DNA of 57,664 bases, filler included, from Dugesia japonica (taxonomy: Eukaryota), in the NCBI GenBank assembly GCA_001938525.1. It is 5 parts of 5 records of this genome, joined end to end, with 100 filler letters (N's around TTAATTAATTAA, not from the genome) between each part and the next. Parts side by side here need not be neighbours in the genome. Positions count along the whole stretch, not along the records: positions 47,575 to 57,664 come from MQRL01643612.1; 4 more parts are not named here. One strand, written 5' to 3'. Position numbers and translations under genes: made by a program. Below the pieces are notes generated by a model, which had not been told where the DNA came from, ran no database searches, and saw only the letters and a program-made list of their open reading frames with translations. The first letter of the stretch is position 1. Each line of letters opens with the position of its first letter. Shown here piece after piece: positions 165 through 57,664 of the stretch.

Positions 165-2899
165 TTTCTTCGTTTTCTTGAATTTGACTTAAAACTGCTC
201 CACTTGCAAAGTGACTAACATCTGTATCCAATTAGAAAGTATCATTCCTATTTGGAAACGATAAAACTGGTGCGCTTGTGAGATCATGTTTTAGGATGTT
301 GAAAGATTCTTTATGAAATTCTTCCTATGGTAAATCAACCCTTTTTCCGATTTTTGTGATGTTTGCATCTCTTAACAAATCTTCAAGAGGTTTAAAAGTT
401 TTGGCATATCCCCAAATAAATCTTCTGTAATAATTGCAAAATCCTAAAGACTTGATAATTCTTCATTCGTATACGGAATACTTCAATTTTATTCTGCAAT
501 AATTTTTTCTCGATCAGTTCTCACTTCTTCGCCTGATATTATGTGAAACAAATATTTTACTGAAGTTTTTAAACAAAATGCAATTCTTGGGAGATAACTT
601 AACTCCCGATTGACTTAACTGTTGGTTATCTATGCTGGTAATTTTCTATAGTCGATACATAACCTAATGTCTCCAGATTTCCTTTGAACAACCACAATAG
701 GTGAAGACCACAGACTTAAAATTTCGCGTATGATTCTGTTTTCTTCAAGCTCTTTGATCATCTCGTCGATTTTACTTTCCAGATGATGGGGTGCTCGTCG
801 TAATGGTTGAGAACTAGGTTTACGATCAATGACACGTATTTCGTATTTTAAAATTGTACAATGCCCGATATCATAATTTACTTTACTAAATATATCTTTA
901 AATTCTGTTATTATCTTTGTTACATTTTTTATCGATATAAGCTGAATGTATGTTGATAATTGTATCCATCAAACATTGAACATGCCCCATCCTAGTATTT
1001 TGATATATTCTATTAATATTTCAAATATTATCTTCTGTATCATCTATAATCTCAATATAACCTAATCTCCTATTTTAAAACATTGTAAAATCTTTATTTT
1101 TTAAGTTAATTATTCTTACTGGGATTTTTCCAGTTCCTTTAACATGAGACACACTATTCGCAGCTACAACTCCTTATATTTGCTAACTTATCTTTATAAG
1201 GACTAAATTAAACTTTCTTCAAACAAAAAATATCGCTATCTACACTCGCTAAAAAAGTTACTTCTTCTTTAGGTTACTTATTCTTTTCTCAAAATTGTAA
1301 CTTTACTGTCTAATATAATTCTTACTGAACACATCTGAATACCCTTCAAACTTATCGCACTATTATCTGGACCCTCGGATACAGTGCTCTTTAGTTTTCC
1401 GTTAACTCTCTTATTTTATAAATGAAAGGTACTTTTATTTCATTCGCAGTTACTCAGTCTAGTTTTGGTAAAATCGAAATGTTCATCTTTTTATTATTAT
1501 GACTATTATGACTTTTTGGAACAATTTATCTACAATAGTCATTCTAATTCTATTGGTTTGATTTCCTATAGTTACATTTATAAAAGAATATCCAATTACC
1601 TTAATCGGTAAGCCATTTTCACATGTCAACGTCTCGTTTGATCGAAACAGCTGGACTTTTCTTTTTCTCGGATCATTTGAAATAGATTAAAATCCATAAT
1701 GCTGGAATCTGCTCCAGAATCTATAAAAAATTTACCTTCTTCTTGTTTTACTTTGCCTTTGATTATTGGTTTGTTTGCTGCGGGTTCGCTTCTTGTATCT
1801 GATATCATTGTTCTTTGTTCTTTGTGAATTGGAAATTTGTGTCTTGAACATCGAATCTACTCATCCAACTTAATAATATCGTCTCGGTAATTGATATTTC
1901 ATTTTGTTTCTTTTTGTCTTTCAGTTTTTCTTTCTTTTTAAACAATTTTGAAAAATTCGTTATTATCTTCAGATTCCTTTTCATAATCAAAATTGGCTTC
2001 ATGATATACAATATTCGAATTGTCATTCCTTTCATCTAGTATTTGAAAAGCTTCTTTCTAAATATTAGATCTTTTTGCTGCTTGACAAAATCGAGATATA
2101 TGTCCGGATTTGTTACAGTTCCTGATTAGCAATGGTTTATTACAATTTCGAGCAATATGACCTTCCCCATTGCAATTATAACATTTTATTTCTTGTTTGA
2201 TCTTTTGAGCTGCATACTTTGAAGAATATGTTTCATGGTTTCTTTCTAAATATTTTATACGATTTTCAAGATCAATTTTTTTTTCGTTTTAATAATTCCA
2301 TTTCTAGTCATTTTCTGGGTTAACATCATTGTTAATAATTCGCAATTTATCATTATGTCAAGATTTATCTTCCTTTTTTATGCAATTAAAAGTTTCTTCC
2401 AGAGTGTTTGGTTTATTAATTTCCATGGCTCTGACTGCCAAACGATTATAAACCTCTTTCAAAAATATCGATAAGAGAGTATTTTCTCTATCAAATTCAT
2501 TATAATCTGGCATTTCTCGAATTCCAGCAATTCTGATGGCAGTTAGATACTGTCTAAGAGTCATATCTTCATGCTTTAAGGAGAAAATTTTAATTATTGG
2601 AGTAACCTTGGTTGACTTATCTGATATAATTTAATTAACTTTGTCTTCAGCCATCCATAATTTGATTTATTAGAATTAAAACTCTGGAATTGATTAGAGT
2701 TCCAAAAATGCTTCTTCTTCTAAACTTTTCAATAACTTCTCTGAGTGTTGTGTTGGATCCCCTATTTTTTGTTCTTCGGCAAATTTTCGAATTCAGTAAT
2801 ATGAAGATAAATATTTTCTCCGATTGCAAATTACTTGGAAAACATCTTTTTTTTCAGTTACCCAATCGATAAGTTCCTCCAGCAATTATCGTAACGCCA
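165..2899 (-). mobile_element. Degenerate Ty3/Gypsy LTR retrotransposon (gag-PR-RT-RH, truncated)
   Basis: Minus-strand motifs in Gypsy order: gag with CCHC knuckles (CYNCNGEGHIARNC, NCNKSGHISRFC, ~2090-2190), aspartic protease FFIDSGADSSI (1626-1808), RT WSSPIVVVQRKSGDIRLCIDYR (~645-715), RNase H LTSAPVLSFP..FLLDTDVSHFASGAVLSQI (~180-290). Many stops and frameshifts. PBS-like CA|TGGCG at ~2899. Confidence 0.9.
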
Positions 2900-4830: not shown

Positions 4831-5338
4831 CTAGATTTGTGAAACAAATCCCCCATTGTCAACAGATGTTGATGAGACTACTCGATGATTACCTGGACCG
4901 TTTTGAGGTTGAGCATGTAAATTTTTCATCAGAAACGATGTCACCTCATGACGTATTGGAGAAACATTTGGCTGTTGAATAACGGAATTGAAATGATTTG
5001 ATATGTTCTCATCATACGTTTTAACGCGTTTATGTTTTTCAAAATTTGTATAAACTTTATGGTTTCCGTCACTTTGTTGTGTCAGCAATTGAGGTTTATG
5101 TGATGCTGATCTGACTGGAGTATTTGGGATACCATACTCTGATGATATTAAGTTGAGATCAACGAGACTTGGACGTGCAAATACTGAGCCGATGAAAGTA
5201 GATGATTTTCTAACAGCTACAAGTTCTGGTTCATAATCAAAATAGAGATTTGAGCCGGTTCCCAATTTTTGTTCACGAATCAGACCTTTGTACAAAAGGT
5301 TTGGAAATAAAGAATTACGAATAGAACTTATTGTTAAT
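4831..5338 (-). CDS. ATP10: Terminal exon of phospholipid-transporting P4-ATPase (ATP10-like), cytoplasmic tail
   Basis: Acceptor ttttgcttag| at 5339 is phase-compatible with the exon ending at 9225 and gives ...AAILPR-LTISSIRNSLFP..., resembling the ATP10 post-TM10 sequence. Open 169-codon frame to the TAG stop. Confidence 0.7.
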
Positions 5339-5744
5339 CTAAGCAAAAGTAATTTGGTTATCGGATAATTAATTGATGATATATTATTATTTCAAATATC
5401 TCGTTAAAGAAAATGAAAACTATAATAATATGATTTAATTCATAGAGTCAAATATGTAATTGACAAATGAAACATAGTTATTGCCAGTACACAAATAAAT
5501 ATGGGATTTCCTTATCAATTTTTAATTCTTATTTGAATAACAAAATAATATCATCATTTGAAAAATTATTAGTCATTATTAATAGACAAAGAGTGTATAG
5601 AAAGTAATTTGTTTCGAAGATAATATCTGTTCCTGGACAAAAGAAAAGTGTTAACATCCTTCTCCATATTACGATTAATATTATGAATAATTTTTTGCTT
5701 TTTGATGCGATTTATTGATTTTAATTTAATTTAGTTTAATTTTA

Positions 5745-7810: not shown

Positions 7811-8103
7811 TAAGGGTGGCCAACCGTTCCAAAATTATTGGGAAAATCTCGAATTGTTTAACTTAGTCTCGATGTGTCCGAATGTCTAATTGAAATACAA
7901 ATTATCCCAATTTATAGATTGTTGTTGATTTTAGCAATAACATATTTGAAATGTTATGTAAAATTGTTAAAAATTTTAATATAATGAACGTCGATTATGG
8001 CATATTATTTGAAGAAAGTATCAAAGACCAGGGCACGTCCAATGAATTTTTATAAATTTAATAATTTGTCCCGCTTTCAAACATAGAAAAGTTGACAACC
8101 CTA
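7811..8103. mobile_element. MITE with TAGGGT(T/G)GCCAAC-type termini (hAT-like)
   Basis: Left end (T)AAGGGTGGCCAAC, right end GTTGACAACCCTA, with internal GTCCC/GGGA-type subterminal motifs. No clear target-site duplication. Confidence 0.55.
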
Positions 8104-9165
8104 CATGTCGCTATTTTCATTAATATATATTAGAAAATTACAATTTATAATTTTACCGCATCATTCCTTAATAACTTAAATTAAAGTTGGAAAAAATTTG
8201 CAAGTATTTGTATTCTAAGTTTTAAAAGAATTGCAAANNNNNNNNNNNNNNNNNNNNNNNNNNNNNNNNNNNNNNNNNNNNNNAAAATTAGGTAAAAATC
8301 TATATATTGAACAAGTAAATTAAATCATGAAACATTTGGCAAATTATGGCATTTAAGAAAATATTTTTTGTACAAAAAACTATTTTATATCATTGAAAAT
8401 TCCAATTTCATAGAATCTTTCCAAGAAAAAAAGGATGTCATTTTATAAAGAATTTCAAAATTCAAAAAGAAATTAGCAAAAACAATTACTTCAATATTTT
8501 TAAAATTCCTCACGCATATGATAAATCAAACAGTCTTTAGTTTAACGAGAACAGCTTGGATAAAATAAATAAATAGATTGCTTGTTGAAAATTTAAAAGC
8601 AACATTTTAAATAGAATTGAAGCTTATTTGCAAAAATTTTGAAAACAAAACAAGCTTACTGTTACGAGCTAACTAATTCAAAAATAATAAAAATAAGGTA
8701 TTGTTTAGCTTCTTTTCATTCTTCATGATTTTTAATAAAATTATATTAACAAAATAAAATTAAAATAATATTATTTTCATTTCTACTTGATATTAAAAGA
8801 CCAGGACACGTCGAAATGAATTTTTAAAAAATTTAATAATTTGTCCCGCTTTCAAACATAGAAAAGTTGACAACCCTACATGTCGCTATTTTCATTAATA
8901 TATATTAGAAAATTACAATTTATAATTTTACCGCATCATTCCTTAATAACTTAANTTAAAGTTGGAAAAAATTTGCAAGTATTTGTATTCTAAGTTTTAA
9001 AAGAATTGCAAAAAATTCGAAACTTCCACAAATTTAGAGTATCTTTCTATAGTACTAGAAAATTAGGTAAAAAATCTAAATATTGAACAAGTCAATTAAA
9101 TCATGAAACATTTGGCAAATTATGACATTTAAGAAAATATTTTTTGTACAAAAAAACTATTTTAA
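8023..9165 (+). repeat. ~370-bp direct duplication (8023-8387 and ~8797-9165)
   Basis: Near-identical sequence AAAGACCAGG(G/A)CACGTC...GTTGACAACCCTACATGTC...TTTGTACAAAAAACTATTTTA occurs twice. The first copy contains an N gap. Confidence 0.8.
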
Positions 9166-11351: not shown

Positions 11352-11451
11352 NNNNNNNNNNNNNNNNNNNNNNNNNNNNNNNNNNNNNNNNNNNNTTAAT
11401 TAATTAANNNNNNNNNNNNNNNNNNNNNNNNNNNNNNNNNNNNNNNNNNNN
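11352..11451. other. Artificial contig spacer N44-TTAATTAATTAA-N44
   Basis: Six-frame-stop linker; the identical 100-bp structure recurs four times. Confidence 0.95.
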
Positions 11452-11575
11452 CTATATATAGAATCGAAAAAATTTTAAAATCGAAAGGAACAAAAAAGAA
11501 TAAACAATATTATGTAAAATGGCATCGATATGAAAAACCTACTTGGATATTAGCATCACAGTTAGTTAATAATGA
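11452..11575 (+). pseudogene. Polinton family A integrase C-terminal chromodomain
   Basis: YRIEKILKSKGTKKNKQYYVKWHRYEKPTWILASQL matches the chromodomain pattern (IEKI...VKW..Y...TW) and lies directly upstream of the penton, as in Maverick gene order. Confidence 0.7.
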
Positions 11576-12606
11576 ACAACGTGAAAAATTTTCTGTACAC
11601 TTTTACCTAGTAATAGCTGTCCTCTTATTCATCCGAATAATAATGCTAGAAAATTCATTGTTGAGCTTCNNNNNNNNNNNNNNNNNNNNNNNNNNNNNNN
11701 NNNNNNNNNNNNNNNNNNNNNNNNNNNNNNNNNNNNNNNNNNNNNNNNNNNNNNNNNNNNNNNNNNNNNNNNNNNNNNNNNNNNNNNNNNNNNNNNNNNN
11801 NNNNNNNNNNNNNNNNNNNNNNNNNNNNNNNNNNNNNNNNNNNNNNNNNNNNNNNNNNNNNNNNNNNNNNNNNNNNNNNNNNNNNNNNNNNNNNNNNNNN
11901 NNNNNNNNNNNATATGTTGCCATATTTGAAAATGAAACAACTGCAATTAGATTTGGATTCTCATATAAGATTAACCACATGAAACCCGGATAATTTCGTA
12001 TTCTGTATACCGCATTTAAAGAAGATTTGCCAATAGAATATGTAAAATTTAAAATAGAATATTCTAAAATAAGTTATAATACTATACAGTTGAAAGATAA
12101 ATTATACATAACAGAAATTGAAGAATTAAGTAAATATTTAACAAAAAGAAGTTTTGAACTATTTTATACAGTTAGTCTCAAAGCAAATAATCTATTTCAA
12201 ATGTCACTAAGAAATTATATCATTACTGTTACATTTGATAAAGTCTTGACAAAAACTTTTGGATCAGAAAAACAACAATATTCACATGATGAATTGAAGG
12301 ATGGTATATTGCAAGGTATTAGAAATCCAAAAATAATTAAGCTACATCAATAAATGTTCATCTATAGTATTGTTGAACCTATAATTGTAGGAGATGTTAA
12401 AGTTCCTTTTTTGAAATCGGTATGGATAGAAAAACATAAAACTGATGAAGTAATGCAAATAATAGTTGATAATCTAATGTATTTACTAATTGCTACGTAT
12501 AAACAATATAGAAATAAACATTTGTGATGATAACGGTAAATTAATCAAGTTTGCAAAAGACTCTAAAACACGTTTAACTTTAAAGTTTCGAAAATTAAAT
12601 GAATAA
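11572..12606 (+). pseudogene. Polinton family A minor capsid protein (penton, PM), frameshifted, contains an N gap
   Basis: N-terminus LPSNSCPLIHPNNNARKFIVEL. C-terminus FIYSIVEPIIVGDVKVPFLK...INNIEINICDDNGKLIKF...LTLKFR, the conserved Polinton penton end. Confidence 0.8.
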
Positions 12607-13035
12607 TTCCGATATTGTGTCGTTGTATGGCAGTAGTCAAGCTGGTGGAGAATTATCTTATTTTGTAGGAAAACAGTATGGTTTCAGTTTTTTGCGCTCC
12701 TTATTCTTAGACAAATTGGTTCACTTGGTATGAAAACTGCTCAGGATGTACTGGCTAATAATGGGAAGCTATTACCGACACTAAAATCGAATGCATTGGA
12801 TGAAATTGGTAATTTAGTGTCTTCATTGCCTAGCGGATTGACTAACATGATACCAAAAGTAGGAAAAATATTACTGACAAGTATAACAAACAAAATACCA
12901 AGTAGTATAAGTAAAAAATATATTAAAAAAATAAGTAAAAAATAAAACCAACCAGTTAAAAGTGGTAAGCGTGAAAAATCAAGCACGTTGCGTATAAACA
13001 AACGAATGAAAGGACATGGAACTATATTTGAGTAA
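12599..13035 (+). pseudogene. Polinton PW-like basic core protein (frameshifted)
   Basis: YGSSQAGGELSYFVGKQYGFSFLRSL (Q-x-GG..F-x-G..Q-x-G motif), Lys-rich tail ending ...KGHGTIFE*, positioned between penton and major capsid. Confidence 0.65.
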
Positions 13036-13665
13036 TGATCTGTGGAAAAACTGAATTGTGGTTTTTTTATCGACCATCTTCCAAAGCGGTTATTGGGTAT
13101 GGTGCATTTGAGGATGTGTTTCCAATGAATACAATTTCAGAAAATAGAAATTATGTAGAGTTTTATATAAATGGATCCCAAACAGAATACTTAGACTTGA
13201 ATGTTACTTTATTGTACGTGCAAGTAAAAATAGTTGATAAAACTGGTAAAGATTTGGCTGACAATTCTGATGTGGTACCTAACAATTACATATTTCATTT
13301 GTTATTTAAAGATGCAATTATGTCATTTAATACTATTTTTTAAATTAAAAATTGAGGGTGGGAATGAAACTCATATTCAAAAAGCATTGATTGAAACAAT
13401 TTTAAATTATAAGGGAGATAGTAAAAATATATGTCTTGCAGCAATGGGGTATGGATTAGATGATGTTAGAAAAGCTTCTATTTTAAAAATCCAAATCATT
13501 GTCTCCATGTGGTTCATTGCAATTAGATTTTATGGATCAACCGAAATATCTTATTCCGGATGTCAATGTTCATATTCGAATGAAAAGATCCAATTCTAGA
13601 ATGCTTTTAGAATCAGCAAATGATGAACCAAAATATCAATAGTTGGATGCAAAATTAATGGTCAA
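13035..13665 (+). pseudogene. Polinton family A major capsid protein (PY, double jelly-roll), N-terminal half only
   Basis: CGKTELWFFYRP..VEFYINGSQTEYLDLNVTLLYVQVKIV..G..VVPNNYIFHLLF, then KALIETILNY, then GSLQLDFMDQPKYLIPDVNVHIRMKR: the PY N-terminal motifs. Confidence 0.85.
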
Positions 13666-13669
13666 AATT

Positions 13670-13900
13670 AATTGGACAAGCCTCCATACTTTCCAGTAAA
13701 TAAAGCTATAATTGTCAATACTCAAACATCTAATATCGGTAGAGAACATTGGATAGCAGTTTACAAAAAAACAGAAATATTGGTCTCACATCTCTCAAAA
13801 ATATCAAAGCCAATTGAGTAAAACAAAATAAGATTTCAAAACCCATTCACAACGATTTGTGGACGATATTGTTTAATATCGTTAAAAAAGCAACATTATA
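13670..13900 (+). pseudogene. Adenain-like cysteine protease fragment (family A)
   Basis: IIVNTQTSNIGREHWIAVY (His motif) and FQNPFTTICGRYCL (Gln/Cys motif); the FDS region is deleted. Confidence 0.75.
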
Positions 13901-14717: not shown

Positions 14718-16876
14718 ATTATAGACTATTGATTTCATTTATTTTGAAAACATGTTATATTGTAAATTATGTTGATTTACCGTTCTTTAAATTCAAAACT
14801 TGTATGTTAATTTTAAGACATGCATATAATTTCAATTGATATATTTAAATTATTTATTTTGTTATATTAATAAAAATTATATAAATAGGTATATAATTAA
14901 CATTAAAGTTTTAATATGCAATATGTATGCAAATTCAACAAAGAAAATTCACCATGGTTGCAAATTATAATCAATTTCAACAGTTTAAAATAATTATTCA
15001 TGTTAATGTAAAATGTCTAATAAACATATTAATATTTTCGAGACGGATGTAAATTTTCTCCCAAATACTGTACAAATACAGCTCATAATGACCATTACCA
15101 TGATATTATGGAGAAATATATAGAGGACGAAGATTGTGCGATTGTAGAGATTATGAAGGATGAAGATTGCCAAGTTGTAGAAAAGGATTGAAATAATTTT
15201 GAAATTGTGGATGAGTTCAACGCCGAAAATAATGTAATTAATGAAGAGGTTTTAGTTGGCGGCTCTGTAGATGTAGATTCTACACCAAATGTGGAAATTG
15301 AGTCTGATTTATGCAAATTCCATCAGATTTGGAAAATGGACATTTTAAACTGGGGAACAACGGAAATTGTACTGTCGAAAAAATTGATTGATAGATCATT
15401 TGCCAATAATAAAACATGTCAAAATACGATTTGGGGTAATGGTGGAATTTATTAAGGAAAACGAGACAAAAACTTGCAGATTATGGAATCGTGCAGTACC
15501 ACTTACAAATTATTTTTTCGAAGAGGACGTGAAACAATTTAATGAAAAAATAACCATCAAAAGCGAGCTGAGATCAAGTTGGATTCTCCGTCGTATATTA
15601 GAAATAAATTTCGAAATTACGAAAATTTCCAATATGCGTCGGCTGTCTGGAAGTGGATACATTGTAACACCAAAAAAATTAAATAAAATACCGGTTGTTG
15701 TAAACGTATTCAATAACGACAATAAGTGTTTCTTGCACAGCATACTTACCGTGCCCAAAAAGGATGAGGCCGATGAAAATCATATATACAGAGCCAGACA
15801 ATATGATAGATTCATGTCAGAATTGAAGTATGATGAGGCGGATTTGCCGATGAAATTAAAAGACATTAGAAAGTTTGACGAAATTCCGGGTTTATCTATA
15901 AGTGTGTTATCGTGGGACTCTCAATGCATTGAAGACGGTGACGATGATGGGGTGATAAAGCATCCGAACCTCGCTATTATACATCATTTGAACGTTGTTG
16001 GTGGAAAGAGGATTAATTTATTACTGCTGGAAGATCAAGATAAATTTCATTATACCGCAGTATTAAATTTAAATTGTCTCATGAATCGGGATTTGAAATC
16101 AAATGGTGTCATGACACAGACATTATGGTGTCCCAATTGTCTGAATGGATTTTGTTTGAGGGAAACATTCGAAAAACATCAACCNATATGCGATCGAATA
16201 TAAACGGGCACTACCATGTACACTATGCCAACAAAAACAAAATTAAAATTTGAGTATTTCGGAAAAACTGGCACTCTTAAGTCAGAAGCTGCCCTATGGG
16301 GATTTCGAGTGGGTTCACACAGGATTCGATAATGCTTTGGAGGAATGTATGACGGCGGACATTGAATCGTTGCCATACTGATACTCATTACAGGGCGGGA
16401 TTTGGTTATTAAAGCTGAAATACAGGAATATCTAAATGATCTCCCGGTAGCAGCAGAACACCAATGCGCTCCAGACAGTAAAGTGAAAAAATTGATGTTG
16501 ACACATTATCTGAAAAAAAACTACATCATTCACTGGAGGCTGCTACAGATGTATATAAAGTTGGGTGTACAGGTTACAAAGGTACACGTGGGGAGTTCGA
16601 TTTAGTCAAGGAACAATATTTAAGAAGTATATCGATATTAATAGGAAATTAAGATCAGAAGCGGATACAGAATTGGATAAAAACTACTACAAATTGCTCA
16701 ACAATAGCCTATATTGGAAAACAGTGGAGAACCTGAAAAAGAGAATAAATTTGCGCTTGTGTAATTCAGCCAAGAAGTTGATAACATACACTTCGAAAGC
16801 TGGATTTAAAAGAACAATCAAAATAGACGATGGTCTGATATCTGTCCTTCTCAATAAGAAAATTATATGTTTATAA
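14042..16876 (+). pseudogene. polB: Protein-primed family B DNA polymerase (family A) with OTU-like N-terminal domain and putative spliced 5' exons; internally deleted
   Basis: GSGYIVTPKKL..VNVFNNDNKCFLHSIL...FHYTAVLNL...CPNCLNGF..H..IC, then after a deletion NDLPVAAEH, KNYIIHWRLLQ, YYKLLNNSLY(W)KTVEN. Upstream micro-exons at 14042-14482 are inferred from GT-AG sites. Confidence 0.85.
14672..14716 (+). repeat. (AAT)n microsatellite
   Basis: Directly visible; lies in the inferred last 5' intron of polB. Confidence 0.9.
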
Positions 16877-19856: not shown

Positions 19857-20662
19857 ATGAATCCGGATCAATTTCAATCGAGGCACGCTGTCACGGTTAT
19901 GTTCAATAAGCAATCAATGGTAACATTTTTTTATTTTGTAATTAATTTATTTAGAATAATTTGAAGGAAAAAGGAACTATACATAATTCCTTCCCGTCAA
20001 AATACAAATCAAAACTTCCAACAATATGGAAATATACAAGGGGGATCTGTACATTGAACTATAAGAAGTATTTGAAAACATGCAAGGTTGCAAGAAAAAC
20101 GAAAATCGATAAAAGATACCCATTAAACAATTGGGTTAACCACATTGCAAAAATCTCCAATACCGAATTAATTTTGAAACGCTGGGAATTGGAGAAGAAA
20201 ATCCAAGATGGACTTATGGCTACAATTCAAGCCCAAATTTTGGACTCTCTCGCTATGAGTACAAANNNTAATGATGAGGAAGAAAAAATGTCATTCGACT
20301 CGGACAAATTAGAAAACATCAGCTTTCTTCTTGGTAAATTTACAAATTCGATTGAGATGGAGTTAGAAACAAAAGCAGTTTCGATATATAACGAAAAATA
20401 TTTACAATCAGTGAAGAAAGTGATCAATTTAAATGTCCCTGGAATTCCCCAACAAGTAAAAAATCAAATATTAGATGATTTAAACTTAATTGCTAAGGCG
20501 CAGGCATTAATTGAAATTCAAGGTTGTAAGTTGGATAAATATGCAAGTAAATTTGTTATTATTATATATATGCTTTAATAATTTATTTTAGATCCTGTTT
20601 GTTTTAAAAAAGGTCCGAAATTCATAAAAATAAAAAATTTTTTAAATAAATTTTTACTTTAA
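19857..20662 (+). CDS. Three-exon orphan gene, probably Polinton cargo
   Basis: Exons 19857-19919, 19955-20546 and 20592-20662, joined in frame by 35-nt and 45-nt GT-AG introns; contains a 3-N gap. Confidence 0.55.
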
Positions 20663-20957: not shown

Positions 20958-21887
20958 GTTAGGAAGATACTACACTGTCCTCTATGCTACTTAATGTGTA
21001 ATGCCCATATGGTACTGATATGTTTTTGCTAGTCCACACTCGCTTATCATCGTTATTAGTGAGTGCGACTTTTTTTTTTCAAACTATATAGCTGGTGGTT
21101 TATCGAACCAATTTTAAATTGATTTAATGAGACCGGCAAATTATTTTCATAACAGTCAAGGAATGTCTGATGTTTTAAATTATTATTTCTTATTGTTATG
21201 CCTTTTGCTTTTATCGTTGTTTTATCACTCAAAAGGCTATAACACTTTGGTCTCAAGAAAATCCATTCTTTGTACTTAACCCTTTTACTTTCGTCCTTAA
21301 ATTTCCTAATGACTGAATTTAGATTGTTCCTGTAAAGCAGGTGGCTTGTTTTTTAATTGGATGTGTCCAATAACTGGTCCTCCACCATCAAACCGGTTAG
21401 TTTTTCTAAACTTATATCTACAACTTCAAGGAAAAAGCTATTTGTGTCGCCGGCTACAATATTTATTTTACAAATCTCTTCTATACGATACTTTTCCAAC
21501 TGAATGTACGGTAGTTGGTACATTCTTAACTTTGAGAGGTCAAGTGCCGTTTGTCCAATGTATCTTGGACGATCTAAACATACAATTTCCCTTTTGGAGA
21601 AGGACAGATATTAGATCATCATCTATTTTGATTGATCTTTGAAATCCAGCTTTTGATGTGTATTGTCATCAACTTCTTGGCTGAATTACACAAGCGCAAA
21701 TTTATTCGTTTCTTCAGGTTCTCCACTGTTTTCCTATAAAGACTATTGTTGATCAGCTAATAATAATTTTTTTCTAATTTCGTTTCTGATTCTGACCGCA
21801 GTTTGATGTTCATATCGATATATTTTTTGAAAATTGTCCCTTGACTAAATCAAACTCCCCACGTGTACCTTTGTAATCTGTACACCT
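20958..21887 (-). pseudogene. polB: pPolB C-terminal part (family A)
   Basis: INNSLYRKTVENLKKRINLRLC, DRPRYIGQ..LDLSKLRMY, VAGDTNSFF, GKFKDE, LRPKCYS, KAKG, NDDKR..VPYGHY; highly similar to 16565-16876. Confidence 0.9.
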
Positions 21888-23212: not shown

Positions 23213-26200
23213 ATGAATATATTTTATCCATTTGCTCCTTATGAAGTAGGTAATGATTTTTCTTTATTAGAAGATTTGGACAACAGTGTTGAAGTAATAA
23301 TTGATACTATTTTCATTTAATACATACATTCATTTTAGAAACAAGCACATAGTATATCTTCGAATTCATATAATGTAAAATTCAAAGATTTACAGGATAA
23401 TAATATGAAATATGCAACGTATAGCAACACAAGATCAAAACATTTACCCAAAAACGTCCGATTACAAAAATATGTAAATTCTATTGGTTGTGAAGATTTA
23501 ACTGAAGTTACTTTAACTGACGCAATTACAGAACCTTCAGATTCTCCAAAATCTAATTATCCGATAAAGAATGCATTTAAAAATTTGGACTTTTTTTCGA
23601 AAACACCATTTTTAAACAACAAGAAAATTATGCTTTTAGCACCTGATGAATCATATCATAACGTGAAAAAATTTAATAATCAAATTAATCAAAAAAATTG
23701 TTCATACATTAATGGACAAAACTGTGGTTTAATTAAATTCCCATTATTACGAATAAACGATTCTAATTTTCAAAAGGAACAGGTTTTTCCGTCAATATTT
23801 CCAAAGTGTGATTTGAATATTAATCGAAATAAATTCGAGTTTTTGATCTCCTTGGACAAATTTAAAGATAAAGATAGTCATTTTCTTATAGACAGAATTG
23901 TTGAAAATAAAAATGAACACAAAAATATAATAAACAAACAAGACCTTGTAAATTTTAACGTCGACAAAAATGTTGAAAATAATCTTTTAAATCAATCAGA
24001 TGCTAAAATTATTGAATTTGAGAATATGACTAATTCTAATGGTAATAATTCTCCTCGCGATAAGTTCATTGATCTTATTGTTAATTCATCCGAACCAGAT
24101 ATTGTTTTACATAATGGTTACATTATAACAGCTGGTATTATTAAACTTTATATATTTTTTATTCATATATTTAGACAGTATAACATCCCAAAGAGATATT
24201 GATATTATTAGTAATGAAACTAATGATTTTAGTAAGACCAGAATTAGAAAAACTTTGCTTATATATTTTTAGGTAACATAAAAAGAATAAAAGGTGAGAT
24301 TAAAAGTGATAGAAACAATAAAGCAACGAGTTAAATTTTTTAAAAATCCATAGCATTTTGTAGTATTTGTAATAATTTTAGGTTCTGTGGAAGAAAATAA
24401 AAAGATATTTCAAGAAAATAAAGAAAAAAACCAATATGGAATGGAAACGGAAGGTTTTAATATAGTAGAAAATCTAAATAAAAGTTAGTTTATTAATTAC
24501 AAATATATTTCCTTTTTCCTAGATTGTTTTTAACTGCATCGACGTTCTAGTAAACAATTTCTTATTGTTTATTGGCATAATTTACAGTTTACCTTTCAAA
24601 ATGACAGATAGATTTTGTGGGAAGTTATTATAAGATAATTGTTGTTTCTCTACCTTTCGTCATTTGCTGTGGCTCATTGTCTTCCTTCTCGAATTTCGGG
24701 AGAAGGTCTGTATTCACAAGAAAAGCATACTTGCTATAATTTGGTTTGCTTTACATATTTCTCACTTGTTGATGAACGCACGTAGAAAGCACAAACTTGC
24801 TATAAAAGCAACTCTGGTATTAACAAAATCATCAGAAAATTCATTAAATTCACTGAGTTGCAATTCATCTTGTTTTAAATTGTCACGACTATCAAGGTTT
24901 ATATTGATATCTAATTATTTTACTCATCTTCTATTACTTCATAATAATTAATTATAACAATACTGCTTAGGCTATTTTTACTCTTCTAGGTTATCAGCGA
25001 TTATTTATTAATTAAATTAAGTAAAATATTTTATTAAGATTTCNNNNNNNNNNNNNNNNNNNNNNNNNNNNNNNNNNNNNNNNNNNNNNNNNNNNNNNNN
25101 NNNNNNNNNNNNNNNNNNNNNNNNNNNNNNNNNNNNNNNNNNNNNNNNNNNNNNNNNNNNNNNNNNNNNNNNNNNNNNNNNNNNNNNNNNNNNNNNNNNN
25201 NNNNNNNNNNNNNNNNNNNNNNNNNNNNNNNNNNAGAAAGGCCAAAGGAGTTTGTTTGTAGTTGCTTTCATAGATAAAGAACTGCGTGAAATCTATGAAA
25301 ATGAAAACGAATCATTGAGATTTGAAGAAAGATTCAGAAAGGCTTTCTTTAGACCATCAACAATGATTAAAGATACGGAGGAAGCTCTAAATTATCGAAG
25401 GAATGGAGAGCATATAAATATCTATAAGAAGAATATTGAAGGATTGGTATAAAAGTTAATGGCTCATAAATGGAACAAAGAGGACATAACAAAAGAGCTA
25501 ATAATGAATAGTTGCTTACTTATTACTTATAAATTTCATCAATACCTAATTTTTTTGTTTTCTTTCCCTTCCATATTATATTCCATATTATACTTCAACA
25601 TTTTTCGTTGGTTTCATTTTCGACATTCGTTCTTCATTTCTTTTCACTCTTTATCGATGTTATTCATATTTGATTCTTGATCTTCTTCTTGCATTTGCCT
25701 TTTTTGTTTTATGTTGTGATGCTTTACCAAACTTATCTGTGATTTATTTCAACATAAGTAAAGATTAATTCAATTAATTGATGCTATTTTATAAAATAAA
25801 TATTTGAACCTTCAAAATCAAGTTTTTTAATAAATAATTAATTTTTAAACAATATTTAAATTGTTATGACTTAATTTTTAAAAAATTTAGAAGTTGCAAT
25901 TAATTATGAATATCCTTCATTACAAGATATTCCAATATTGGCTCCCGATATTTTAGGGAAAATAAATTTACGAAATAATGAGGTTTAATAAATAAATAAT
26001 CATCGAAAATAATTTAATTATTTATAGAAAGTTAAACATTTCTTAGGGGTGAAAAGTATAGACGAAAATGGTTGGAATGAGATGATCTCGATTAATTTGG
26101 ACAACGTAAATGATAAGAGTAGTTCTGTAAATGAACTTGTGCTTGTTGATTCGGAAAATATTAATATCGATAAAGACAGTTATACTAATAAAATTATGGG

Positions 26201-36949: not shown

Positions 36950-37682
36950 TACTTCACTGACATGGATTCCACCTTCACAATCAAGGGAAGTTGTACATTC
37001 TCCAGTTCGACGACCATCTCAGGCGTCAATAACAGAAGCTGGCTTTCTAATCGCTCCAGAGTCTCTCTTCTCTCCATCTATTGTACGACTAACTTATTAG
37101 CGTTCTCCTTCATCTCCGTGAGTCCCATCCTAAGTCGTTCAGTCCCCTGGCGGCTGAGCTGCAAAGCAGCCTGAGTATTCAACAATTCTTGTTTCATGAT
37201 TCTGAATTTCTCCACCAGCTTCCCTCCATTACCGAGAAGATCAATTTTCTTCTTTTCGTATTTTGTCCGCTGCTCAGTCAACAGCTCCACCGTATTTCTC
37301 CAGGGAACCCAGAACGTTCCCTCATCTCCGTAGTTAGTGGGCACCAATGGTATATGCGGTTGAAAGAATTCAGTCATTCTTTCTAGCAAATAAATTCATC
37401 AAAATTTTCATTGCAAAATTAAATATTATCTAAATAAATAAACAAAATGTTAATGCATACAACGTATCTTCGGCCTGTGGCCTATCTGCTTTAGTTCCCC
37501 ACTCCTAGCATACGAACCGGAGAAGTTGACGATCTGAAACCACCACCTTGCAAACAATACCAAAAATGTGAATCTGACCTTGTCGACATTTCAGATATCT
37601 TAATCAATTCCTCACCTCCATCACCGTGATATTTGAATCCTAAATCATGACTGTTCATCACCTTGTGGTTCATCCAATTCAC
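36950..37682 (-). pseudogene. Unknown coiled-coil protein, possibly spliced, with in-frame stops
   Basis: GC-richer frames at 37491-37682 and 37078-37389 (reads through a stop to ~36950), with acceptor-like tttatttgctag at ~37383; no family recognised. Confidence 0.3.
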
Positions 37683-38445
37683 CTATTATACTCTTTAATG
37701 TATTAGCAATTTAAATTAATCGCAATTTTAATAAATTCATTACTCAAATAAATCATAAATCATTAATGCATAATTACTAATCGTTTTATATATTTTACTT
37801 TTAAATAAATTGGTTATTAAGCAAACGATAATCAATCAAATTAAAGAACTGAAGTTGTGTTATAGTTTAATAAAATTTTTATTTCATTTCTCAGCCAACA
37901 ATGATACACCATAAATAAACAAAATTTGACATTCAAGTTAAGAAAGACCAGTACTCCAAAAGATAACAGCATTCAAGCTTCCAGTAGCCACAACCATCTC
38001 TCGAGTTTCCACTACTGTCTTANNNNNNNNNNNNNNNNNNNNNNNNNNNNNNNNNNNNNNNNNNNNNNNNNNACTGTTCATCACCCTGTAGTTCATCCAA
38101 TTCACCTACTATACTCTTCAATGTATTAGCAATTTAAATTAATCGCCATTTTTAATAAATTCATTACTCAAATAAATCATAAATCATTAATGCATAATTA
38201 CTAGTCCTTTTATATATTTTAATATTAAATAAATTGGTGATTAAGCAAACGATAATCAATCAAATTAAATAACTGAAGTTGTGTTATAGTTAAATAAAAT
38301 TTTATTTCATTTCTCAGCCAACAATGATACACCGTAAATAAATAAAATTTGACACTCAAGCTAAGAAAGACCAGTACTTCAAAAGATAACAGTATTCGAG
38401 CTTCCAGTAGCCACAACCATCTCTCGAGTTTCCATTACTGTCTTA
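37650..38445 (+). repeat. ~370-bp direct duplication around an N gap
   Basis: ACTGTTCATCACC...CCATCTCTCGAGTTTCCA(C/T)TACTGTCTTA at 37650-38022 and 38073-38444. Confidence 0.8.
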
Positions 38446-38554
38446 TTCATCTCGGTCCTTTACCAACTTTCGATATTTCTTCTCTGCTTACTCGTATGAT
38501 AGTCAGCTAATTTTGGTCATTCACTTTTCCAAATCTTCCAACTATTTTTCACTG

Positions 38555-39068
38555 CATTTAGATTTCACTTTCTANCAACATCTCAATTTCAATTTCTCTG
38601 CATATTCTTTCATTTTCTTTGCATTCAAATCTCAACTTTCTAACAACATATTAATTTCGAATTCTCTGCATATTCTTTTCATTTACTCGGCATTTAAATT
38701 CCAACTTGCTGCCAACATATTAATTTCGAATCCTCTCATATTCCTTTATTTCTCTGCATTTAAATTTCAACTTGCTGCCAACATAGTAACTTCGAATTCT
38801 CATATTCTTTTCATTTCTCTGTATTTACATTTCAACTTGCTACCAACATATTAATTTCGATTTCTCTGCATATTCTTTTCATTTTCTCTGCATATAAATC
38901 TCAACTTGCTACCAACATTTTAATTTCGATTTCTCTGCTTATTTTCTCTGCATTTAAATTTCAACTTGCTGCCAACATATTAATTTCGAATTCTCTGCAT
39001 ATTTTCTCTGCATTTAAATTTCAACTTGCTGCCAACATAGTAACTTCGAATTCTCTCATATTCTTTTC
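38555..39068 (+). repeat. Minisatellite, ~60-70-bp units, about 8 copies
   Basis: Unit TTCTCTGCATTTAAATTTCAACTTGCTGCCAACATATTAATTTCGAATTCTCTGCATATTCTTTTCA with variants. Confidence 0.85.
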
Positions 39069-40671
39069 GGAAGCACGACAGGATCAGGCACTCGGCATGT
39101 AATTTAATGAACTTAACACTAGTGATTTAAATGAAAAATTAAGGAAATTACTTTCGTTGAGGTTGTCCTTGTCCACAGATTGAAATCGGTTTGATAATAA
39201 CTTCGTTCAATAAAACAGCAAAAAATTGTATCTAAAAAATTCTCAAAAATTAATCTTTTACTCTTCACAAATTAATCTCAAAATAAAAATCGCAAAAATT
39301 TTATTTCTAACTCTTAATTTTTCTCTTGTGCAAACGAGATTTATTCCTCGTTTGCACCACAGCGTTCATTCAGTTATTTGCTGGCCAATCAAGATCTGTT
39401 TTTTCTCCATCTGGGTTCCTGGTTGGTTGGTGTGTTGTTATCCTTTAGTGTGCATCTCTTCATTTTCATTGCAGCGAGAGATTTTGCACACCAACTTGAT
39501 TTATTTCAAAATTATTCAGCAGGTCACCTCATATGACCTCTTAATAATCGGATGTTGTTGTTACAAAGTCCTTGTCTAGCACGAAATGATTCTGCTAATC
39601 TGCTGATGATTTTTCGTCAGCTAGACAAGGCATGATGACTGGACCAGCATTAATTAATTATAATAATTAATATTAAACGCGATACAGCGTTATTATAATA
39701 ATGAAATTGGGTCGCAGAGACCCCTTTAATAAATTATTATATTATCGTATATTATTTTTATTATTTAATTTATCATAACCTTTCTTTACATATACTTTTT
39801 ATTTTTGTAACACCATAATTGGGTCTTCTACGCCCAATTTGCATTTTTCTATATTTTCTACATATAATCCAGAATGATTATAATAATAATAGCTACATAA
39901 TAATAATGATTTTCTTGTACATAATACTCAATTCTCTGGTCCAGACCATCAATTTTTTGACTATTTTTCTCTATTTTCGGCAACCATTGCCCATCTTTGC
40001 CTCTTCTATTAATTCACCATTTTGGTGTTCCAGCCCAACAAAATTAACTATAACTAACTAAAACAAAATAAAACCACGAAATCTTAATTAAAACTAGCTA
40101 AAAATAAAAACTGATTAAATAAAAATACACTGAAACTTAATGAAAATTAACTAAAATTGAACAAATAAATAAAAACTAATAAATAATATTAATAAAAAAC
40201 AAAACATATCCAAACAAGGATTCTCAATAAGCAACTGTAGCCCTAAAGAGGGCTGGTATTCGTTCACAATTTTCTTTTCTTAAATATCTTCCTCTTCATA
40301 ACTTCTTATTTCTTTTATTTTCTTGTTGATTGAAAATATACTACAATGAAAAATTGTTTAATGAAATTTTCAATAAAATAATTCATTACCGATACGGATC
40401 AGTTTTCTTTAGGTAGAAGTGGAATGAGCAGCAAAATAAACTGTAATATGAAATTGTACTTAATATTTATAAATAATAAAAGTTTACTAATACGGATCAA
40501 CTTGATTTGTAGCAGCAGAAGTAAAATATCTGGATCAGCAGCAACAATTTATATACTAAAGAAAAATCTTAAATATTTACTACATAAAAATAAATACTTA
40601 CCATCTTGACACAAACTTCTGTTTCATTGTGATCACTTTGACAACACGAGAAAAAGTACTACATATTTTTT

Positions 40672-52917: not shown

Positions 52918-53806
52918 ATGATTAAAAATAATAATAAATTTATTTGTGAATATTGTAATAAAATATTACTTAGAAAAAATAAAGCTAGACATTTACGTAT
53001 TTGTTTAAAGAAAGGTGGTGACTTACAATCTTCTAAATTAACTTCAACAATTTTAAAACCATTTACTTGGGAAAAATATCCAGGTGAAAGACACTTATTT
53101 AAACATAATTACAACGGACTTGGAACTAGATTAGATTTAAGATTAGATGAAAATAATCTCAATGGGCCCATTCCAAAACCAGGAGAAGAACCAATTAATA
53201 GGGTTGATGAAGCTGCTTTAAAACACGATTTATTATATAAATCTGAAAATATTAGAGATAGACATTTAGCCGATGTTAATTTAATTCATGATTTAAATAA
53301 TATTCCTAATCCTAGTATTTCTGAAAAATTACAAAGAAATTTAGAAAAATTAGCAATCAAAGGTAAAATCGTTATTGGCGCTGGAGTAAGTTCAAATAAT
53401 GATAATATTAAAAACAAAGAAATATTAGCAGAAGAATTACATAAAGAATACAGAAAACCAAAACATTTCTTAAAAGTAATAATAAAAGAAAAAGATAATA
53501 ATTGGGGTTGTGATATTATTGATATGGTCAAAAAATCAAGTGAAGGATTTAGATATATTTTAGTTTGTATTGATTTATACTCTAAATTTGGTTTATGTAT
53601 TCCTATGAAAAATAAAAATCATTAAAATAAGCTTATAAAAATATTTGAAGATAATAATAGATTTCCTGATTATAGCTGGTTTGATAAGGAATCAGCTATT
53701 AGATCAAAGGATCTTGATAAATTTCTTAAAGAAAATTATATTTAATTATTTCACACTGAAAACGAAGGTAAATCAGTTTTTGCTGAAAAATTTATTAGAA
53801 CTCTTT
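52918..53806 (+). CDS. Zn-finger-PLA2X-RVE integrase fusion (Polinton family B); frameshift near 53620
   Basis: CEYC..RHLRIC; NYNGLGT; INRVDEAALKHDLLY; IVIGAG; then in the same frame LAEELHKEYRK...WGCDIIDM...YILVCIDLYSKF; after the frameshift WFDKES and KSVFAEKFIRTL (DDE triad). Confidence 0.85.
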
Positions 53807-53908
53807 CACATTACATCATTGTTTGTATTTCTCCTTTTGCATGTTCAATTTAATTACTACTTCAATACACTGCTTACATGCTGATCTTTCAATATCAGTC
53901 TTATCTCT

Positions 53909-56900
53909 TTACATTTGTAAAGACACCGGATTAATCTCTCTATCCACATGTACAATTTTATCTTGTATCATTCTCAAACATTGGTAACACATCTTTAGTA
54001 ATTGACTTTTTATCACAGGCACCGTTTCTGTTCTCGTTTCGTTACAGGTTTTACACCGATTAAATTCTTTATTTGGTTCCACAACCCACAAAATTCCTCT
54101 CTCTTTATTTGATTCTGGAGTTCCCGAAATTCCTACTTCGTTACTTGATTCTTGAGCCACCAAAATTCTTTCTATCGATTTTGTGGCTGATATCATCCTT
54201 ACACGATCTCTTGATCTGATCAGATATCTCTGCTCCTCCTCTGGTGTGTCTAATTTAAATCGAACTCGTTTTACTCGACTCGTTTCTGACTTCGCTTTTA
54301 CTAGATTCTCTTTATTGTTTTCTGTCTTTTTGGCTGCCAATATTCATCTTGGCACATGCACAATACTTGGTTTCTTTAACGGTTTTCTCAATTCTTTCAA
54401 TTTCAGATTTGTTGCTGTGGTTTCGATTACCATATATGGGCCTTTGTTGGGTCTCTTCAATTTCTCTGTTTTTCCAATATCGATTGTCAGTGTGTTAACT
54501 AGCACTAGATCTCCTTTTTTTAAATGTATGATCTTCGGCTTTACGATAATGTAATTCCTTGTAACTCTCTTGACTAAATCTTGCGTTTGCTTCTGCCAAT
54601 TTCCACATTTCTTTCATACGTTCTTTCATACCTGTCACATAATTATCTTTATCCATGTATTGTGAAATTGGTGGTTGATATTCCAAATCAATAGGCATGT
54701 TACACTCTCTGCCATACATTAAACTGAATGGCGTTGCTCTTGTTGTCGGATGTACTCCCATCCTGTATGCAAATAAACATAGATTCAAATATTTGTCCCA
54801 TTCTCTTGCATCGTTTCATGCATAACTCAACAACATTCTTGTTAACGTTTGATTGAATCTCTCGATCATTCCGTCCGTCTGCGGATGATATGCTGATGTC
54901 CGTAATTTGTAAATATTAAAGAAACTCGTAACTTCTTTCATCAATTTGCTCATAAAATATTTTCCTTGATCAGTTAAAATTTTCTTTGGAGGTCCATAAC
55001 GACTTAATACTTCATTCACTAATACCTTGGCAATTGTCGCTGCTTTTTGATCTCTTAACACAAACGCTTCCGGAAATTTTGATAAATAATCTACCACTGT
55101 CAGAATATATATCATTCCACTGATTGTTGGTGGTAGTGGCCCAATTATATCCATTGCTATTATATCCATCAGTGCTGCTGGCACTAGAATTGGTTGTAAA
55201 AGAATTTTAAATTTTTTTCCTGTTCTCCTTCTTGCTTCACATACCTGATATTGTTCAACCTATGTCTTCTCACTTGTCGTTATATGTGGCCAATAATATT
55301 TTGCTCTCAATTTCGATTCTGTCTTTTTAGCTGACATATGACATCATAATACTCCATTATGATATTGCTCCAAAATCTTTGCTCGTCTATTTTTAGGAAT
55401 TACCAACAACATGTTGTCGCTCTCTTTCATCATCAACCATCCATTTACTATAGCATATCACCCTCGTCGTTTCTTTAGATGTTCTTTATTGCTTTTATTA
55501 CACTTGACTTTACTCAAATCATAATATTTTAGATAATCTAGAATTATTTTAATCTCTTCGTCTTCATCTTGATCCTTTTTGAGGCCCGTGAAATCTTTTT
55601 TGTCGGCTAATATCATGCATAAAGTTCGCATTTCTCGATTCCTTAACTGCTAAATATTAATCACTTCATTATCCAGTATTTTAATATTCGTCTCTCCCTC
55701 TATTCGTCCGTAAATCTAGCTCTGGACATATAATCTGCATTTGCATTTGCTTTAACCGACTTGTATTTCACTAAGGGCTCGTATTCTTGTAGCTTCATTG
55801 CCCATCTTGCTATTCGATTTATCTGTAACGGTTTTTGTTCGATCATTGTAAGCGGTTGATGATCTGTATAAACTACTAATTCGTGTCCAAGTATCAATTT
55901 ATTGAAATGTTTTACTGCTTTGACAATTTCTAAAATTTCTCGTTCTGTTGTACTATAATTTTTCTCAGCACCTTGAAATGTTTTACTGAAATATCCGATT
56001 ACTCGTTCTCGACCTTCTTCGTCTAGCTGACTCAATACAGCTCCCATAGCATATCCACTTGCATCTATTGCTAATATAAACGGTTTATTAAAATCTGGTT
56101 GTACTAATATTGGTGCCGTCATTAACTTTTCTCGTATTATTTCGAATGCCTTTTGATGCTCGTCTGTCAAAATGAATTTAACATCTTGTCTCACTAATGA
56201 TTGAATTGGTTTAGCTATCGTTGTAAATCCTTTGATAAATTTTTTTTAATTGTTTTTCCACACCTAAAAACACTTGCACATCATTTACAGTTTTCGGTAC
56301 TGGTAATTTCTTAAGCTTTTCAATATTTGCTGGATCTGGTTGTTTTCCTTGATCTGATATTAGGTGACCTAAATATGTCACTTGATTTTTTGCCCATTCA
56401 CATTTTTTAGGTTTTACTCTGAGATTCCGCATTTTTAATAGTACAAATACATTACGTAAATCTTTCAAATGCTCCTCAAATGTTGTTGAAAATATTAATA
56501 AATCAATATATACCATACACTGTGGTATTTCATGTGTCACAAAATTCATAAGCCGTTGAAAAGATGCAGGTGCATTGGTCAATCTAAATGGTATCCTCAC
56601 AAATTGATATAAATCTTTCCTTGCTGAAAAGCTGTTTTCTCTTTATCTGCTTCCTCTATTTGAATTTGCCAATATCTACTCCGCAAATCCAATGTCGTAA
56701 ATATCTTTGCATTGTATAATAACATTAATATCTCGTTTATATCTGGTAACGAATAGGTGTCTTTCTTTGTCTTTGCATTTAAATCTCGATAATCAATACA
56801 AAATCTCGTTGATCCATCTTTCTTTTTAATCAATACTTCTGGAAATTGCCATGGTTAACAACTCGTTTCTATTACTTCATTTACAAGCATATCGACAATT

Positions 56901-57664
56901 TTCTCGTTACATATTGCTTTATCCACTTCTGCTTGTTTATAAATCATCTTTTTGATTGGAGATTCATCTGTTAAAATAATTCCATGCTTTATTACCGAAC
57001 AGGTTCAAAATTCACTATCTGTTCCCGCGAAAATATCTATGAATTCTTCCAGTAGCTCTAATAATTGTAATTTCTCCTTTATCGTTAATATTGGTGATTA
57101 AATTTTAAATGTCTGATCCACTTCTTCTCCTTTTGTAATTATTTTAGTCTCCATCCATTTCGCCATCTCGCTTTTATGTACGTCCATTAATTTCTCTTTA
57201 TTTTCATCAATTGTCTCGTCTAATTCATCCATTGGTGGCAATGCTCAAGTCTTTGAATTTGGATGTATCGTAATATCTTTTTCTGTCATATTAAACACAT
57301 TTACAGGTACCCTGCCAACTTCTAATATTTTACTTCTTCATTTGTCGCTAGTAAATTATATCTTTTAGAGAATCCCTCATGCGGTTCAAACATCATCTGT
57401 CCTTCACAATTTGATTCTGTTTTCGCCAAACAGAATACTTGACTCCTACTTAGTATTACTATCTTTTTTCCAATATACACTTCATTATTTCTTGTAAGTA
57501 AATTTTCTCTTGATCCCGTAATATGCAATGTTGTTATATTAAATACCGCTTTTTTCATTATTAATGGCATCAGATCCGTGCCGATAACACATTTCTCACT
57601 CATTTGTTATATCGCCATTTCATGTTCTACTTTTGTACCTTGAAATTCCACTTCGCATCTCAGT
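53909..57664 (-). mobile_element. Degenerate Ty3/Gypsy pol (PR-RT-RH-INT), continues beyond the window
   Basis: VIGTD (protease), KKKDGSTRFCIDYRDLN, LDLRSRYWQ, PFRLTNAPASFQ, DASGYAMGAVLSQ, TDHQPL, AMDIIGPLP, TDQG, TSAYHPQTDGMIERFN, GPY motif. Confidence 0.95.

Follow-up and report, generated by a model that had tools for sequence, protein, structure and literature searches.

In retroviruses, the integrase is made within the Gag-Pol precursor and released by the viral protease. The fusion that we describe here would follow the same working logic, an integrase freed from a precursor by a viral protease, but it belongs to a DNA virus, with a cysteine protease mostly in trans, a phospholipase partner and no frameshift.

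That Polintons carry phospholipase A2 (PLA2) genes, with a proposed role in entry, is already known from PMC4642659, PMC3671162 and PMC5803895. The adintovirus PLA2X of Starrett et al. (PMC8502044) is, like ours, a parvovirus VP1-like PLA2 in a Polinton-type element and a proposed membrane-active virion protein. However, PLA2X has a gene of its own and a pX-like domain at its C-terminus, whereas the PLA2 of our element precedes an integrase. No fused PLA2-integrase is described in the text of that paper, section 3.2 included, or in its supplement text, though one could sit unremarked in sequence compilations. The Spodoptera Mavericks likewise encode a PLA2 protein ('CAP') and an integrase, but in the account of PMC5803895 these are separate ORFs and the integrase carries a chromodomain.

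As to proteolysis, the virion data of Born et al. (PMC6048507) show four cuts by the mavirus protease in the capsid protein, three of the form GG|X and one GY|G. The integrase was also present in the virions, together with a predicted hydrolase (MV13) that has a GK|G site and occurred as two fragments. Mavirus and our element share a clan CE protease and GG|X or GX|G sites, but the mavirus integrase and hydrolase are separate products and the hydrolase is of the alpha/beta type, not a PLA2. The Polinton pPolB (TP-vOTU-polymerase) is also a multi-domain protein with proposed proteolytic processing, but it has other domains and another, built-in protease, as sections of PMC11161782 describe. No Polinton virion has been observed so far, as stated in the text of bioRxiv 10.64898/2026.06.19.733378, and no substrate of the Polinton protease is reported in the open literature that we searched.

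That literature, made up of open-access papers and preprint main texts and not of Repbase entries, describes neither a PLA2-integrase nor a protease-integrase precursor. This holds for the accessible text of PMC11161782, PMC11071296, bioRxiv 10.1101/2023.08.22.554363, bioRxiv 10.64898/2026.10.13.758929, PMC8097293, PMC11296320 and PMC12220804. The PLA2-integrase architecture is already visible in automated Pfam annotation, as an automatic cluster name, and the fusion is apparently an undescribed variant of Polinton gene organisation.

The window, the whole stretch of 57,664 nucleotides from Dugesia japonica analysed here, holds two decayed copies. Copy 1 has an ATG at 52918, and its zinc finger, PLA2 and integrase start share one plus-strand frame of 235 aa (52918..53625) that is unbroken at both domain borders and ended by an in-frame stop. 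Its basic leader carries a C-x2-C-x11-H-x3-C zinc finger, apparent from the sequence and modelled with a pLDDT of about 90 (residues 10-29, 52945..53004). The border 1 motif KKGG|D (residues 31-35, 53008..53022), a predicted cut site, stands before a parvovirus VP1u-type PLA2 domain (PF08398, 53020..53376) with HD..Y at residues 103-107. The border 2 motif VIGA|G (residues 152-156, 53371..53385), likewise a predicted cut site, lies at the end of the last PLA2 helix. The N-terminal and catalytic part of an RVE integrase (53422..53805) begins 14 residues past this Gly motif and has D199, D256 and E290.

The copy 1 PLA2 matches PF08398 with E=2e-4 and its integrase start matches PF00665 with E=2e-5, both slightly short of the family cut-offs. 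The PF08398 features, HD..Y, second Asp and calcium loop, are all present, with the calcium-binding loop one position off the usual family pattern. Sequence and Pfam thus confirm the C2HC finger, HD..Y PLA2 and integrase start in one frame, and both Gly motifs, as the first-pass annotation had them. Its further claim of one uninterrupted frame over 52918-53806 stands for the continuity over both borders but not for the length, as stops interrupt the integrase at 53623-53625 and 53743-53745.

The last third of the integrase is missing from this frame and sits inverted at 52659-52265, a piece that had been overlooked earlier. This C-terminal third (52265..52659, minus strand) is frameshifted, has no chromodomain and was found by tblastn with P0001 and P0010 at 62-73% identity. 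Two occurrences of a 15-bp word, at 53799-53813 and, inverted, at 52651-52665, mark the two breakpoints; the word is found nowhere else in the window. LTR-retrotransposon sequence follows the word at 53799..53813. Read from the sequence, the segment 52651-53813, with the word at both ends, lies inverted with respect to the remaining element, as a local inversion (about 1.15 kb) or a mis-assembly would leave it. Both copies are decayed relics and copy 1 is dead.

Copy 2 (47068..47474, plus strand) has a C2HC leader, three GG motifs (47161-47223) and a PLA2 that matches PF08398 above the cut-off (E=3e-7). The three motifs at its first border, LLGG|I, RIGG|V and VVGG|D, are as previously annotated. 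An N gap at 47475 precedes any integrase, so this copy gives no test of the fusion. The two copies are 70% identical, and over 86 PLA2 codons dN is 0.117 and dS is 0.76; hence the PLA2 was under purifying selection during their divergence. Upstream of copy 2 lies the C-terminal fragment of a probable major capsid protein (46678..46989, plus strand), and a broken protein-primed DNA polymerase B is nearby (42578..44461, plus strand; PF03175 E=3e-4 on one fragment). Beside this polymerase, a small broken ORF with a Gly-rich hydrophobic stretch (44600-45200, minus strand; no significant Pfam match) may be a membrane-active accessory gene.

Directly upstream of the copy 1 fusion gene there is again the C-terminal fragment of a probable major capsid protein (52647..52916, plus strand; DJR-like_dom E=0.016, below the cut-off). 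It is 49% identical over 78 aa to 46762-46995, and such a fragment stands upstream of both copies. The minus strand then carries, in order, the integrase end, a broken ORF without a significant Pfam match (51800..52236), a probable packaging ATPase, a probable minor capsid gene and the protease. The broken ATPase candidate (51170..51800) is presumed from a Walker A-like motif near 51650, its position and resemblance, and the broken minor capsid candidate (50575..51180) is assumed from position and resemblance; neither has a Pfam match.

The protease gene at 50100..50572, annotated in the first pass, is confirmed on the minus strand. It is frameshifted, keeps the His, Asp, Gln and Cys motifs of the adenain-like (clan CE) proteases and matches, as 50572-50100, the adenain-like part of P0047 (tblastn E=2e-8). 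The fragment alone has no PDB sequence match and no Pfam family. To the right of copy 1 there are retrotransposon reverse transcriptase, RNase H and integrase fragments. Copy 1 is part of a decayed Polinton, and the surrounding eukaryotic DNA is AT-rich and full of repeats.

Two Polinton/Maverick (Polintoviricetes) features are present here, the RVE integrase (PF00665, with D, D and E) and the adenain-like cysteine protease, though its gene is frameshifted. The best PDB match of an intact relative's integrase is the foamy-virus integrase. No protein-primed DNA polymerase B is seen in the copy 1 fragment, which retrotransposon sequence bounds, and no inverted pair flanks either copy in a self-BLAST of the window for terminal inverted repeats; the element ends appear lost.

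Adintoviruses are defined by an integrase with a C-terminal chromodomain, in the definition given by PMC11071296, but the window integrase ends at 52265 without one. A chromo-like tail occurs in 6 of 55 fusions, none of them in the window's clade. Adintoviruses are also marked by a PolB with an N-terminal OTU domain and a hexon that BLASTP recognises; the window's fragments lack the polymerase N-terminus and most of the capsid gene. The element thus lacks the adintovirus chromodomain, and its PLA2 is not a PLA2X, since an integrase and not a pX-like C-terminal domain follows the PLA2. We therefore file the element as a Polinton, probably of group 2.

The window holds other relics. A different decayed Polinton (11400-13900, plus strand) has an integrase end with a chromodomain (PF00385), followed by what we take, by resemblance, to be fragments of a minor capsid gene, a small conserved ORF, a major capsid gene and a protease. 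There are at least four broken protein-primed polymerase B copies (15388-16876, 20968-21886, 40657-41850 and 42578-44461), several of them with 68-84% DNA identity. LTR-retrotransposon integrase, RNase H and reverse transcriptase fragments lie in or beside the Polinton relics (45282-46501, plus strand; 53816-57664, minus strand), and another LTR-retrotransposon fragment is recognised by resemblance only (630-968, minus strand). At 37650-38445, 8023-9164 and 38546-39068 there are direct duplications, roughly 370 bp long and with identities of 94% and 85%, and also a tandem array; the duplication at 37650-38445 borders an N gap and could be an artefact of assembly. Three frames (4831-5391, 19955-20578 and 23339-24202) are open over 186-287 aa without a Pfam match and are possible host exons or repeats.

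The AlphaFold model of the window's 235 aa, built with 66 sequences, has a mean pLDDT of 85, and the finger, the PLA2 and the integrase start are confident units. Both Gly motifs lie in low-confidence linkers, the border 1 linker block having a pLDDT of 59. The last PLA2 helix spans residues 134-154, with G154 at its end, and residues 156-161 are below 50. For the PLA2 part, this fold replaced an earlier full-length one from 13 sequences, in which residues 37-87 were below 50.

The best solved-structure match of the PLA2 model is rice PLA2, a modest one (Z 6.9, rmsd 3.8, 89 aligned); matches to helical bundles scored below it and were disregarded. The best viral match is densovirus VP1 (BFVD, E=5e-4). 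With a mean moment of 0.23 and a net charge of +3.4, the last PLA2 helix lacks a strongly amphipathic character, and we therefore dropped the idea of a separate lytic helix.

The PLA2-integrase fusion is real, and it is conserved. Of 20 matches obtained when we looked for longer relatives, 14 are proteins of 429-473 aa with both PF08398 and PF00665, and all 14 are open through the junction, in line with the single frame first annotated. A profile from 13 fusions was then run against 1.84 billion representatives at 50% identity. Among the best 150, 31 have both domains and 28 are clean PLA2-then-integrase fusions, a list rich in fusions because the profile was built from fusions. In the ESM Atlas, clusters of 184, 111 and 72 members have PF08398 in 78-99% and PF00665 in 93-100%, with cluster scores of 0.82-0.84 that make them leads only. 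The same junction is found in 3 of 22 Lottia gigantea gene models. The host range is based on the Lottia names and sparse Atlas taxa.

Both enzymes keep their catalytic residues in the intact relatives. Of the 45 clean fusions, 44 have the PLA2 His-Asp and all have the second Asp; the integrase D, D and E are found in all 42 of sufficient length. The count of 45 leaves out P0024, P0032 and P0044, where the integrase start is missing, and P0129, where the order is reversed. As the counted proteins are related, these and the following counts are of non-independent events.

The zinc finger is less constant than the Zn-finger-PLA2-integrase architecture of the first-pass annotation implied. By our pattern it occurs in 11 of 50 fusions, always as C2H2, and the other leaders are simply basic; the C2HC version is found in the window's two copies only. 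We thus rejected the finger as a fixed part of the precursor; it is an accessory, variable leader. Scanned with the fusion alignment, genome contigs of bacteria and archaea gave 600 pattern matches, none of them confirmed.

Some other arrangements were seen. P0129 has an integrase with a chromo-like tail and then a PLA2, with G-D-G just before the PLA2. P0049, P0178 and P0205 are PLA2 proteins with a DUF5679 cysteine motif leader instead of a C2H2 finger, and GG stands before the PLA2 in P0049 and P0178 but not in P0205. Among the 22 Lottia gigantea proteins (P0015-P0020 and P0181-P0206), many PLA2 exons are nearly identical and have G-A/S-G ahead of the first Asp, which suggests a multi-copy family of the PLA2-integrase element in this mollusc.

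The Gly motifs are conserved at both borders, as the first-pass annotation would have it. At border 2, between PLA2 and integrase, GG or GxG is present in 39 of 45 fusions and absent from 6, against a background of 69 in 10,073 equally sized windows from integrase bodies (0.7%). The pattern is K-x-x-(L/F/V)-G-x-G or -G-G, with the second Gly at +2 in 29 and at +1 in 13 of the 39. Border 1 could be scored for 39 of 50 fusions. Where the leader has at least 12 aa, GG directly precedes the PLA2-starting Asp in 20 of 24, versus 2 of 15 with shorter leaders (Fisher p=3e-5, among related proteins). The background is 0 of 600 Asp preceded by GG in integrase bodies.

The motifs also coincide with the ends of stand-alone proteins. 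Leaderless relatives have their N-terminus 1-3 residues ahead of the PLA2-starting Asp, so the predicted cut at border 1 reproduces a natural N-terminus. The integrase model starts at most 14 residues from motif 2 in 30 of 45 fusions; the N-terminus is similarly short, at most 15 residues, in 59 of 109 stand-alone integrases. Among stand-alone PLA2 relatives, 8 of 12 keep motif 2, and in 5 of 12 the protein stops no more than 10 residues from it, so that a cut would remove little. This fits a mature C-terminus and also a structural helix cap. Dozens of intact relatives thus lend strong support to a leader-PLA2-integrase precursor that has Gly motifs at its two borders.

The sites are not of the adenain type that was first annotated. 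Like the proposed precursor, adenovirus precursors are matured at Gly-containing sites by a related protease, with the consensus (M/I/L)XGG|X or (M/I/L)XGX|G and P4 relaxed in some real sites, as sections of PMC4246237 report. However, adenovirus has no integrase, and its P4 rule (M/I/L) is obeyed by only 6 of 45 fusion sites at border 2. Neither of the two copy 1 sites, KKGG|D and VIGA|G, and one of the three in copy 2 agree with the strict consensus, which we rejected. A site of mavirus type, with GG|X or GX|G exposed in a linker, is found at both copy 1 borders and in 39 of 45 relatives. By their residues, the border sites fit this Gly-Gly or Gly-x-Gly mavirus type and not the adenain consensus.

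Integrases are also fused to the protease. P0034, P0047 and P0075 have an adenain-like protease joined to the integrase N-terminus (Peptidase_C5 E=0.014-0.09), with Gly-x-Gly or Gly-Gly at the junction; P0075 has an N-terminal C2H2 finger in addition. An Atlas cluster of 60 members and 466 aa scores 0.99 to P0047 and is possibly P0047's own. A Gly junction is missing from P0046, an integrase that carries a different extension at its N-terminus.

In an integrase tree of 167 rows, the window falls in a clade of 27 with support 1.0, of which 24 are fused and 3 start inside the integrase. The other fusions are scattered over this unrooted tree, fused and unfused rows interleaving with at least 17 state changes. 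A single origin of the fusion is rejected by an AU test against a single clade of PLA2 fusions (p=6e-63), in which the choice of 38 rows after the first tree is biased and some 'stand-alone' rows may be fragments. The scatter and the rejection together mean that fusion and fission recurred, in a direction that is readable only with a root.

We consider it probable that the element makes a virion-packaged precursor, which its clan CE protease cuts at both Gly motifs to free the PLA2 and the integrase. In this Polinton/Maverick lineage, probably of group 2, the integrase would be made as the C-terminal part of a precursor in the order of basic leader (often a zinc finger), GG, PLA2, GxG or GG, and integrase. 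The precursor would be packaged in the particle, where the basic leader may bind the genome and the PLA2 part may bind the capsid interior. During maturation the protease would cut it at the Gly motifs. The freed PLA2 would then breach the endosomal membrane, as in parvoviruses, and the freed, full-size integrase would travel with the genome. Cleavage by the element's protease and packaging in virions are what we infer, helped by the mavirus data in PMC6048507. The protease gene and the fusion in one element are known here from the decayed window copy alone.

Three other explanations can account for part of these observations. One is that the fusion works uncut as a two-enzyme protein made for co-packaging or co-expression, the Gly motifs being a helix cap and hinges. 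The parvovirus PLA2 is known to act while tethered to VP1, G154 does end the last PLA2 helix, and motif 2 is kept in most stand-alone PLA2s and absent from the 6 fusions noted above. But a helix cap accounts for one Gly and not for the second at +2 or +1, and an uncut protein explains neither why GG|D tracks the leaders nor why Gly junctions follow an unrelated protease domain, so that we think it unlikely. Another is that the precursor is cut at the Gly motifs by a different enzyme, either the vOTU domain of the polymerase or a deubiquitinase or SUMO protease of the host, and perhaps not inside a virion. In its favour, ubiquitin-like proteases are generally known to cleave after GG, and P4 of the Gly motifs does not fit adenain. 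Moreover, Polinton pPolBs carry a vOTU protease proposed to cut the polyprotein, in the account of PMC11161782. Yet the GX|G forms, a majority at border 2, agree better with the clan CE rule of virophages than with a GG end of the ubiquitin type, and the element has its own clan CE protease gene, which leaves this cut quite improbable.

The last is that decay or gene calling produced the fusion, from adjacent genes that had lost a stop codon. The decayed and rearranged window copy, the interleaving of fused and unfused integrases on the tree and the machine prediction of most relatives would agree with it. It is largely refuted and hardly credible. Against it stand the window's support-1.0 clade, with 24 fused proteins among 27 and the remaining 3 starting within the integrase, the short, in-register linkers, the intact active sites of both enzymes and the recurrence of the junction in the 3 Lottia gene models.

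Under the packaged and cleaved precursor, a broader reading is that Polintons repeatedly and independently evolved a retrovirus-like polyprotein, a Gly site joining the integrase to an upstream virion-core protein from which it is released at maturation. The upstream partner would be the PLA2 in many lineages and the maturation protease itself in others. We hold this reading to be evenly balanced. The protease-integrase fusions suggest that the Gly-junction rule is general.

For annotation, the 'integrases' of 430-470 aa in the window's group are probably precursors. The fusion also gives exact, testable predictions of the Polinton protease cut sites. A conserved fusion of an integrase with a membrane-penetration enzyme, with Gly sites at the ends of the stand-alone proteins, makes most sense if the integrase is packaged. 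If true, the repeated polyprotein would provide the first named substrates of the Polinton protease, and genetic evidence that the integrase is a virion component and that animal Polintons have an extracellular infectious stage.
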